Assembly (NCBI RefSeq): GCF_000027125.1
Contig: NC_017626.1
From: Escherichia coli 042
GTDB lineage: Bacteria > Pseudomonadota > Gammaproteobacteria > Enterobacterales > Enterobacteriaceae
Length of the DNA: 64,000 bases
Strand: one strand, 5' to 3'
The number at the start of each line of letters is the position of its first letter. Position 1 is the first letter of the stretch. Below the pieces are notes generated by a model. The model saw nothing but the letters and a program-made list of their open reading frames with translations. It did no database searches and was not told where the DNA came from. The position numbers and the translations under genes were made by a program. This document shows, piece after piece, positions 58,839 through 59,353 of the stretch.

Positions 58839-58869
58839 CGCCTTTACTCCCTGTTAGTTGTTATTTATT

Positions 58870-59351
58870 GGCGGATGCGGCGTAAACGCCTTATCCGCCC
58901 TACATGTGCAATCCTGTAGGCCGGATAAGACGCAGCAAGCGTCGCATCCAGCAATTGCACCGCGCCACTGGCGGATGCGGCGTAAACGCCTTATCCGCCC
59001 TACATGTGCAATCCTGTAGGCCGGATAAGAGCAGCAAGCGTTGCATCCGGCAATTGCACCGCGCCACTGGCGGATGCGGCGTGAACGCCTTATCCGCCCT
59101 ACATGTGCAATCCTGTAGGCCGGATCAGACGCGGCAAGCGTCGCATCCGGCAATTGCACCGCGCCACTGGCGGATGCGGCGTGAACGCCTTATCCGCCCT
59201 ACATGTGCAATCCTGTAGGCCGGATAAGACGCGGCAAGCGTCGCATCCGGCAATTGCACCGCGCCACTGGCGGATGCGGCGTGAACGCCTTATCCGCCCT
59301 ACATGTGCAATCCTGTAGGCCGGATAAGACGCAGCAAGCGTCGCATCCGGC
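58870..59351. repeat. tandem array of five ~100-bp BIME units (about ten REP palindromes) between eutH and eutG
   Basis: motif ggcggatgcggcg recurs at 58870, 58970, 59069, 59169 and 59269; each unit holds an inverted REP pair; units differ by a few point changes. Confidence 0.9.
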
Positions 59352-59353
59352 AT

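Follow-up and report, generated by a model that had tools for sequence, protein, structure and literature searches.

What fills the unusually long gap between eutG and eutH in the eut operon of Escherichia coli 042, and does it matter for expression of the operon? The junction lies in a 64,000-nucleotide stretch of this genome (NCBI RefSeq assembly GCF_000027125.1, contig NC_017626.1), referred to here as the window, in which the two genes occupy the minus strand. At 515 bp it is by far the longest gap, the other inspected eut junctions being overlapping or short, with about 106 bp as the next largest. Here, we show that it is filled nearly throughout by a tandem array of repetitive extragenic palindromic (REP) sequences, and we consider it virtually certain that this array is an expanded allele of a known dispersed REP array of the bacterial interspersed mosaic element (BIME) type BIME-2, named REP178 in E. 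coli K-12. The junction and its parts are located in the window as follows.

58839-59353, between two minus-strand genes: eutG-eutH intercistronic gap, 515 bp
59354-60541, minus strand: eutG (EutG), the upstream gene; NCBIfam equivalog NF011998, 878.6 bits against a cut-off of 556
57612-58838, minus strand: eutH (EutH), the downstream gene; NF011665, 873.3 bits against a cut-off of 574
59354-59356, minus strand: stop codon TAA of eutG
58869-59352, minus strand (eut-sense): tandem BIME-2 array of five 100-bp units (one of 99 bp) with ten REP hairpins
58839-58868, minus strand: eutH 5' leader, outside the repeat, with the Shine-Dalgarno sequence AGGGAG at 58847-58852, 8 nt from the ATG
58870-58903, plus strand: Y-type REP, copy nearest to eutH, GGCGGATGCGGCGTAAACGCCTTATCCGCCCTAC, read from the sequence with the foot motif on the plus strand
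58970-59003, 59069-59102, 59169-59202, and 59269-59302, plus strand: other Y-type REP copies
59315-59352, minus strand: Z2-type REP, copy nearest to eutG and first in the transcript, TGCCGGATGCGACGCTTGCTGCGTCTTATCCGGCCTAC, with the foot motif on the minus strand
59215-59252, 59115-59152, 59016-59052, and 58916-58953, minus strand: other Z2-type REP copies
58904-58915: short tail-to-tail linker of 12 nt, ATGTGCAATCCT, present in every unit and without an IHF (integration host factor) site
58954-58969: head-to-head linker, ATTGCACCGCGCCACT, with four copies between the units, aligned to the l linker of the K-12 array REP325

Tandem Repeats Finder reported 58869-59352 with a period of 100, 4.8 copies, 97% matches, 0% indels, and a score of 912, and a repeat search placed the copies 99, 100, 100, and 100 bp apart. 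The array covers 484 of the 515 intercistronic bases, the other 30 being the eutH leader. With up to two mismatches allowed, the REP-foot motif CTTATCMGSCCTAC matched ten times in the array, alternating between the plus and minus strands, and thus each unit is an inverted REP pair. The whole window contained 15 matches, where chance predicts 0.75, and this number was not attained in any of 100 shuffles. All ten array REPs end in CCTAC (the GTAG/CTAC foot). Read in the sense of the transcript, a unit runs from a Z2-type REP, TGCCGGATGCGACGCTTGCYGCGTCTTATCCGGCCTAC, through the 12-nt tail linker to an inverted Y-type REP, GTAGGGCGGATAAGGCGTTYACGCCGCATCCGCCA, and a head linker of 15 to 16 nt. Mean column identity in the unit alignment was 96%, and the five units differ at six substitutions and one 1-nt deletion. 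A first-pass annotation, made from the letters of the window, had proposed a REP/BIME array inside the eut operon at this place, and the tandem repeat, the ten foot motifs, and the assignment of EutG and EutH to their families bear this out. The unit starts that it gave (58870, 58970, 59069, 59169, and 59269) coincide exactly with the first base of each of the five Y-type REPs on the plus strand, and the point differences that it quoted between units, GTAAACGCC versus GTGAACGCC and GGATAAGAC versus GGATCAGAC, are real.

BIME-2 elements are defined as z2 and y REPs in multiple tandem copies, the number of which varies between strains at a given locus (Ton-Hoang et al., PMC3333891). The eut array combines five Y-type REPs on the plus strand with five Z2-type REPs, inversely oriented, on the minus strand, and its REP parts align at 90% identity or more to Y and Z2 of REP325. 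It is extragenic, lying wholly between the eutG stop codon and the eutH leader, and its tandem copies are alike (97% match) and number one to five across E. coli. The IHF consensus WATCAANNNNTTR had no match in 58839-59353, even with one mismatch allowed. The array is a short-linker BIME-2, and a reading as IHF-binding BIME-1 was rejected for want of an IHF site; the IHF binding that the first-pass annotation had listed among possible properties of such hairpins belongs to the long linker of BIME-1 and does not apply here. In K-12, the interval 2568140-2568322 is catalogued as REP178, in a tandem pair with eutG upstream and eutH downstream (Harris et al., supplement to bioRxiv 10.64898/2026.03.23.713779), and the homologous spacer measures 216 bp and holds two units. 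The element is thus already catalogued, and the window carries an expanded allele of it. Element, class, intercistronic position, and copy-number polymorphism among strains have been known and described for decades, and a literature search for a direct report on REPs in the eutG-eutH spacer found none.

The Rfam family RF02564 (naRNA4), with a gathering score of 59.5, matched the array on the eut-sense strand as follows.

59218-59299, minus strand: Y-linker-Z2 module, 77.5 bits
59118-59199, minus strand: further match, 71.6 bits
59019-59099, minus strand: further match, 59.3 bits
58919-59000, minus strand: further match, 75.9 bits

Three units score above the gathering threshold and the fourth just below it, and plus-strand scores were weaker (46 to 56 bits). 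The naRNA4 model, built on the Y-linker-Z2 module of REP325, amounts to a description of that module in any BIME-2, and thus these matches, real as they are, indicate membership of the repeat family and not a small RNA gene.

Two further readings of the array were rejected. Open reading frames (ORFs) of 60 to 104 codons exist on both strands, none of them with a Pfam match; a unit is not a whole number of codons long, and such ORFs are what chance yields in a stop-poor, GC-rich repeat. A CRISPR-like array was discarded because the stretches between the palindromes are identical linkers and not unique spacers. An 84-codon ORF on the minus strand (59099-59353) opens with an AUG lying one base past the eutG stop codon (UAAAUG) and spans 2.5 units. 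In one-unit alleles its frame ends within the eutH leader. The ORF matches no Pfam family and is probably a side product of the repeat.

In the transcript, the array would be highly structured. Folded as minus-strand RNA, 58809-59400 (the spacer with 30 nt of eutH and 47 nt of eutG) gave -302.3 kcal/mol, with z = -9.45 relative to shuffles, and a single unit gave -53.7 kcal/mol (z = -4.7). On the eut-sense strand, the Z2 hairpin reached -22.8 kcal/mol and the Y hairpin -20.9 kcal/mol, and the tail and head linkers are complementary in the RNA (AUUGCAC/GUGCAAU), lengthening the Y hairpin. The Y stem variant of the array, GGCGGAT/ATCCGCC, represents a compensatory swap relative to the canonical GCCGGAT/ATCCGGC. 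Among 11 distinct Escherichia Y-type sequences, 95.8% of cells pair, compared with 27 to 54% in shifted registers, and two stem positions are changed on both sides (GC to CG and CG to UA). None of 500 shuffles attained as high a covariation score, in a small sample with few events. This covariation supports the long-known point that REP stems are maintained. A scan for intrinsic terminators found no site in 58839-59353, and no U-tract follows any of the hairpins, which are followed by CAGG or AGUGG instead. A sigma-70-like promoter consensus is likewise absent from the array. The array was therefore rejected both as an intrinsic terminator and as an internal eutH promoter.

How variable is this array within the species? 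Of 5,426 complete E. coli genomes, 5,425 gave a match to a 1,315-bp query that crosses the junction. As a single unit suffices to cover every unit of the query, BLAST coverage does not distinguish copy numbers, and alleles were estimated from two systematic samples of 60 rows each and not from a full count. The first sample was evenly spaced through the ranking, with alleles called by the span from flank to flank: 1315/1316 bp in 6 rows (five units), 1116 bp in 4 (three units), 1016 bp in 23 (two units), 916 bp in 19 (one unit), 899 bp in 4 (a decayed remnant, O157), and 969 or 905 bp in 3 (a different element). The second sample, obtained with a 120-nt query made up of the flanks only, comprised 5 five-unit, 2 four-unit, 1 three-unit, 25 two-unit, and 14 one-unit alleles, together with the alternative element in 4 rows, the left flank only in 8, and the eutG flank only in 1. 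Pooling both samples (n ~118), we estimate the allele frequencies at 9% for five units, 2% for four, 4% for three, 41% for two, 28% for one, 10% for decayed or unresolved junctions, and 6% for the alternative element. Nine loci that were read had spacers of 515/516, 316, 216, and 116 bp, corresponding to five, three, two, and one units, and also included the 99-bp O157 remnant and the unrelated palindromic element of 169 or 105 bp. Taking both samples and the loci read together, E. coli spacers with intact units measure 515/516, 416, 316, 216, or 116 bp. Variation in copy number between strains, which the first-pass annotation had suspected, was thus confirmed by the comparison of spacers, with one, two, three, four, and five units all seen. 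With the flanks-only query, the flanks lay more than about 560 bp apart, and hence were not joined, in at most 8 of 5,411 records, and thus arrays of more than five units, or insertions, are rare.

The differences between units also bear on their origin. Private variants are common to the units of one strain, such as CCTGTAGGCCGG in all five units of the window, CCCGTAGGCTGG in both K-12 units, and CCCGAAGGCCAG and CCCGTCGGCCGG in B2-like alleles. Units are more alike within a strain than between strains, which supports the earlier suggestion that they arose by local duplication, and there are two distinct five-unit haplotypes, that of the window and that of strain 23AR0151. The latter resembles a three-unit allele (locus L003) with its middle unit triplicated. 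These sequence patterns point to amplification in place, with five units having arisen at least twice. The array would grow and shrink by recombination or slippage between the 100-bp direct repeats, or through a REP-associated transposase. Of the nine E. coli alleles read, eight have the same eutH leader, and the O157 allele differs from it at one base.

Two kinds of junction depart from this series. The O157-type remnant, as read in 644-PT8 (L006:701-799), consists of 99 bp of one unit, with the 5' half of the Z2 REP missing and a mutated Y REP; no Rfam family matches it. The alternative element is a GC-rich palindromic sequence (...CCCTCACCC...GGGTGAGGG...) of 169 or 105 bp, exemplified by FDAARGOS_1279 (L007:701-869) and E300010 (L008:701-805). 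It is itself a dispersed repeat of unannotated intergenic DNA (median, 7 places per genome), has no Rfam match, and folds as RNA with -53.6 kcal/mol (z = -2.2).

Beyond E. coli, species-representative genomes were scanned for EutH, which gave 50 loci in each of which eutG and eutH were located and the spacer was measured. The following junctions were found.

27-48 bp: leader only, empty; several Citrobacter (including C. braakii), Pluralibacter, Yokenella, Buttiauxella, Hafnia, and Morganella
67 bp: single REP; Salmonella enterica diarizonae
60 bp: single REP in the opposite orientation; C. sedlakii
119-123 bp: one REP pair in head-to-head order with different flanks; many Citrobacter and Pseudocitrobacter
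170-216 bp: Klebsiella-type REPs (GTAGCCCGGG...); Klebsiella
116, 315, 474, and 578 bp: 1 to about 5.5 units; other Escherichia

The junction has thus been colonized on repeated occasions by lineage-specific REPs. The sequence GACAGGGAG is kept in several species with an empty junction, for example Citrobacter sp. FP75 and a Pluralibacter metagenome-assembled genome. Two Escherichia loci outside typical E. coli carry about 5.5 units (L014:2092-2671) and about 4.5 units (L054:2526-3001), in both cases with a truncated eutG-proximal Z2 REP, and most units of L054 share a private compensatory Y-stem variant, GGGTGGAT/ATCCACC.

What, then, might the array do? The best explanation overall, which we regard as fairly likely, is that it modestly biases eut expression through hairpins in the transcript. 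The array would be transcribed within the long eut mRNA and fold into ten stable hairpins that lack a U-tract. These would shield the upstream eutS-eutG segment from 3'-to-5' exonucleases, and some transcripts would terminate prematurely ahead of eutH-eutR, in part through Rho, owing to the 515-nt stretch of structured, untranslated RNA. The net result would be a modest bias in favor of the upstream genes that increases with copy number, five units exceeding two, and the first hairpin, the REP stem of which starts 2 nt past the eutG stop codon UAA, may in addition reduce EutG translation. This proposal draws on REP325, the deletion of which changed the yjdM/yjdN RNA ratio from ~35 to ~1. REP325 stabilized the upstream mRNA, cut the downstream transcript about 8-fold, gave a ladder of hairpin-ended RNAs, and was partly Rho-dependent, although only as the full array (bioRxiv 10.64898/2026.03.23.713779). 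Genome-wide, 146 REP-containing tandem gene pairs showed raised upstream/downstream ratios with wide scatter (same source). Moreover, REPs less than 16 nt from a stop codon lower translation of the upstream gene, according to Liang et al. 2015 as cited in PMC12306157, and the gap of 2 nt before the first eut hairpin falls within this distance.

Several observations weigh against such an effect. In proteomics of K-12 W3110, which has two units, grown with ethanolamine and B12 (PMC11334477), and with EutQ set to 100, the upstream proteins EutG and EutE reached 7 and 27, and the downstream proteins EutB (37), EutL (39), and EutC (24) exceed EutG and are comparable to EutE, which makes strong polarity unlikely with two units. 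This comparison is imperfect, as protein levels also reflect translation and as K-12 carries prophage CPZ-55 between eutA and eutB, which is missing from the window. The low level of EutG in K-12 is compatible with a translational effect, without proving one. In vitro Rho-binding peaks near REP178 were listed only on the strand antisense to eut, in a screen that also missed REP325, and REP effects are context-dependent, with two to four hairpins being insufficient for Rho-dependence (bioRxiv 10.64898/2026.03.23.713779). Folding of the O157 remnant does not surpass that of shuffled sequence (z = -0.42), and a repeat without any REP fills the spacer in 304 of 5,426 complete genomes (5.6%). Given the empty junctions in relatives, the eut operon evidently works without the element, and the empty, decayed, and replaced junctions together imply that the effect of the array, whatever it is, is dispensable. 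The first-pass annotation had suggested that the array may set the expression ratio between the eutG side and the eutH-eutR side of the operon, which is a reasonable idea by analogy with REP325. On balance, we lean, if only slightly, toward a measurable bias of eut expression, and if the effect is real it is probably modest.

The Rho-binding peaks were listed at 2568056-2568201 and 2568390-2568551 of K-12 NC_000913.3 (supplementary table of bioRxiv 10.64898/2026.03.23.713779). In the window, they correspond by homology to the edge of the array next to eutH and to the 3' part of eutG.

The array might instead be a near-neutral selfish or junk repeat that occupies a permissive landing site downstream of the eutG stop codon, without meaningful consequences for expression or fitness. 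We take this to be a serious alternative where any fitness relevance is concerned and, overall, a possible though doubtful account. It fits the phylogenetic pattern well: the junction is empty in the six groups named above for spacers of 27-48 bp, other lineages carry unrelated REP types and arrangements (the Klebsiella type, a single REP in either orientation, the head-to-head pair of Citrobacter), copy number in E. coli spreads broadly from one to five units, the O157 allele is decayed, and in the 304 genomes another dispersed repeat sits in place of the array. The absence of a polar drop after eutG in the K-12 proteomics (PMC11334477) points the same way. However, the closest studied array, REP325, has large local RNA effects and REP-containing tandem pairs are biased genome-wide, and some structured element is present at the junction in most Escherichia, in Klebsiella, and in many Citrobacter. 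The stems also keep their pairing via compensatory changes, although this could equally reflect what the element needs for its own propagation.

A second possibility, compatible with the proposed bias through transcript hairpins, concerns translation. Here ribosomes would stall at the first hairpin, the mRNA would be cut, rescue by transfer-messenger RNA would follow, and EutG would drop, with the other nine hairpins being passengers. The distance of 2 nt from stop codon to stem is read directly from the sequence, and a stop-adjacent first REP is present in all intact E. coli alleles read and, in similar form, in S. enterica diarizonae and Citrobacter sp. NCU1. In K-12, EutG ranks with the least abundant Eut enzymes (PMC11334477), but a low EutG level has many other possible causes, and the stop-proximal Z2 REP is truncated in L014, L054, and O157. 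We entertain this explanation tentatively.

An effect at the level of DNA seems unlikely. As a strong site of gyrase binding and cleavage, the array would provide topological relief or act as an insulator in a 17-gene, highly induced operon, more units would mean more gyrase sites, and such a role would be compatible with the RNA-level explanation. In vivo cleavage of BIME-2 elements by gyrase has been reported, and REPs have been described as insulators of transcription-induced supercoiling, in work cited in PMC3333891, and the array has the matching architecture of Y, Z2, and short linkers. However, the operon works without the array in related genera with an empty junction. Finally, that the array is a source of naRNA4-like RNAs which, with HU, bridge cruciform DNA and condense the chromosome (original model, PMC4550694) can be dismissed as most improbable: three units score 71.6 to 77.5 bits on the transcribed strand, above the RF02564 gathering score, but these matches mean repeat-family membership only, eut is silent without ethanolamine and B12, and deletion or overexpression of REP325/naRNA4 left nucleoid size unchanged, with REP-REP contacts being HU-independent, in a later study that includes the original senior author (bioRxiv 10.64898/2026.03.23.713779), so that the proposed function is contradicted and the role of the founding member largely refuted.

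Returning to the bias through transcript hairpins, a far-reaching extension would be that the array is a copy-number rheostat, in which the gain or loss of units (one to five or more) or the swapping of the repeat tunes eut output. We consider this rather improbable. If true, read-through into eutH-eutABC-eutLK-eutR, and hence the EutR auto-induction loop, would be tuned, as would survival of the upstream mRNA for shell and enzymes and the amount of EutG, and lineages of E. coli would differ heritably in ethanolamine use without any change in coding sequence or promoter. At face value the array matters little, as it represents a known repeat class with a known kind of polymorphism. The locus is nevertheless a convenient natural test case, offering 0, 1, 2, 3, 4, and 5 units, a decayed remnant, and an unrelated repeat in an inducible operon, with the genes of the key enzyme and the activator in its downstream part. 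Should REP arrays act as graded terminator-stabilizer dials, as shown for REP325, it would allow a clean dose-response test, and ethanolamine use is relevant to gut colonization and virulence.

Elsewhere in the operon, EutA, EutJ, and EutE were identified in the window by their NCBIfam families, and the remaining minus-strand ORFs fit eutN, eutM, eutB, eutC, eutL, eutK, and eutR by size and order only. At the eutB-eutA junction (56200-56212) the genes are adjacent, 11 bp apart; in K-12 MG1655, the cryptic prophage CPZ-55 ends right beside eutA. Other REP sequences and RNA genes in the window include the following.

37578-37640: inverted REP pair that looks like BIME-1, with an IHF-like sequence ATTCAATATATTG (37604-37616) in its linker, overlapping a match to Rfam ES036 (CssrF) at 37592-37634 (41.1 bits against a gathering score of 37.6)
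15885-15930 and 38652-38665: two more REP sites, one an inverted pair with a Y copy that has the CCGCCC stem variant of the eut array, the other a solitary REP foot with a single mismatch
21206-21393, minus strand: cluster of two tRNAs (Rfam)
24093-24487, plus strand: cluster of four tRNAs (Rfam)

Among known systems, BIME-1 elements (RIP/RIB) share with the eut array the inverted extragenic REP pair, but are single-copy combinations of Y and Z1 with a long IHF-binding linker, whereas the eut array lacks an IHF consensus. REP doublets forming hairpins and their REP-associated tyrosine transposases (REPIN/RAYT, with the transposase TnpA_REP) resemble it in the inverted arrangement, the GTAG foot, and the stem mismatch, features that TnpA_REP needs (PMC3333891), but no transposase gene adjoins the eut array. 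The REPs of malE-malF and hisJ-hisQ (Higgins/Newbury, as cited in PMC12306157) likewise form hairpins between cistrons and set relative expression within their operons, with a proposed protection of the upstream mRNA from 3'-to-5' decay, and comprise one or two REPs, in contrast to ten hairpins in eut. The genes downstream in eut include the key enzyme EutBC and the activator EutR, and strong polarity would thus be costly.

REP325 (naRNA1-6, yjdM-yjdN, K-12) is also a BIME-2 with a 100-nt period inside an operon between co-directional genes, and its orientation to transcription is the same, with Z2 forward and Y inverted. Identity to the eut array in the REP parts is at least 90%, and the two units share 78 identical columns over ~100 nt. 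REP325 has six units as opposed to five, begins with Y where the eut array begins with Z2, and has different linkers, and the two arrays differ by compensatory stem variants (REP325 versus eut), GCCTGAT/ATCAGGC versus GCCGGAT/ATCCGGC in Z2 and GCCGGAT/ATCCGGC versus GGCGGAT/ATCCGCC in Y. Regulatory effects were measured in REP325 only. REP178 of K-12 MG1655 is alike in locus, flanks, leader, Y/Z2 unit, and linkers, and differs from the array of the window in having two units in a 216-bp spacer, compared with five in 515 bp, and in its private variant, CCCGTAGGCTGG in K-12 versus CCTGTAGGCCGG in the window.

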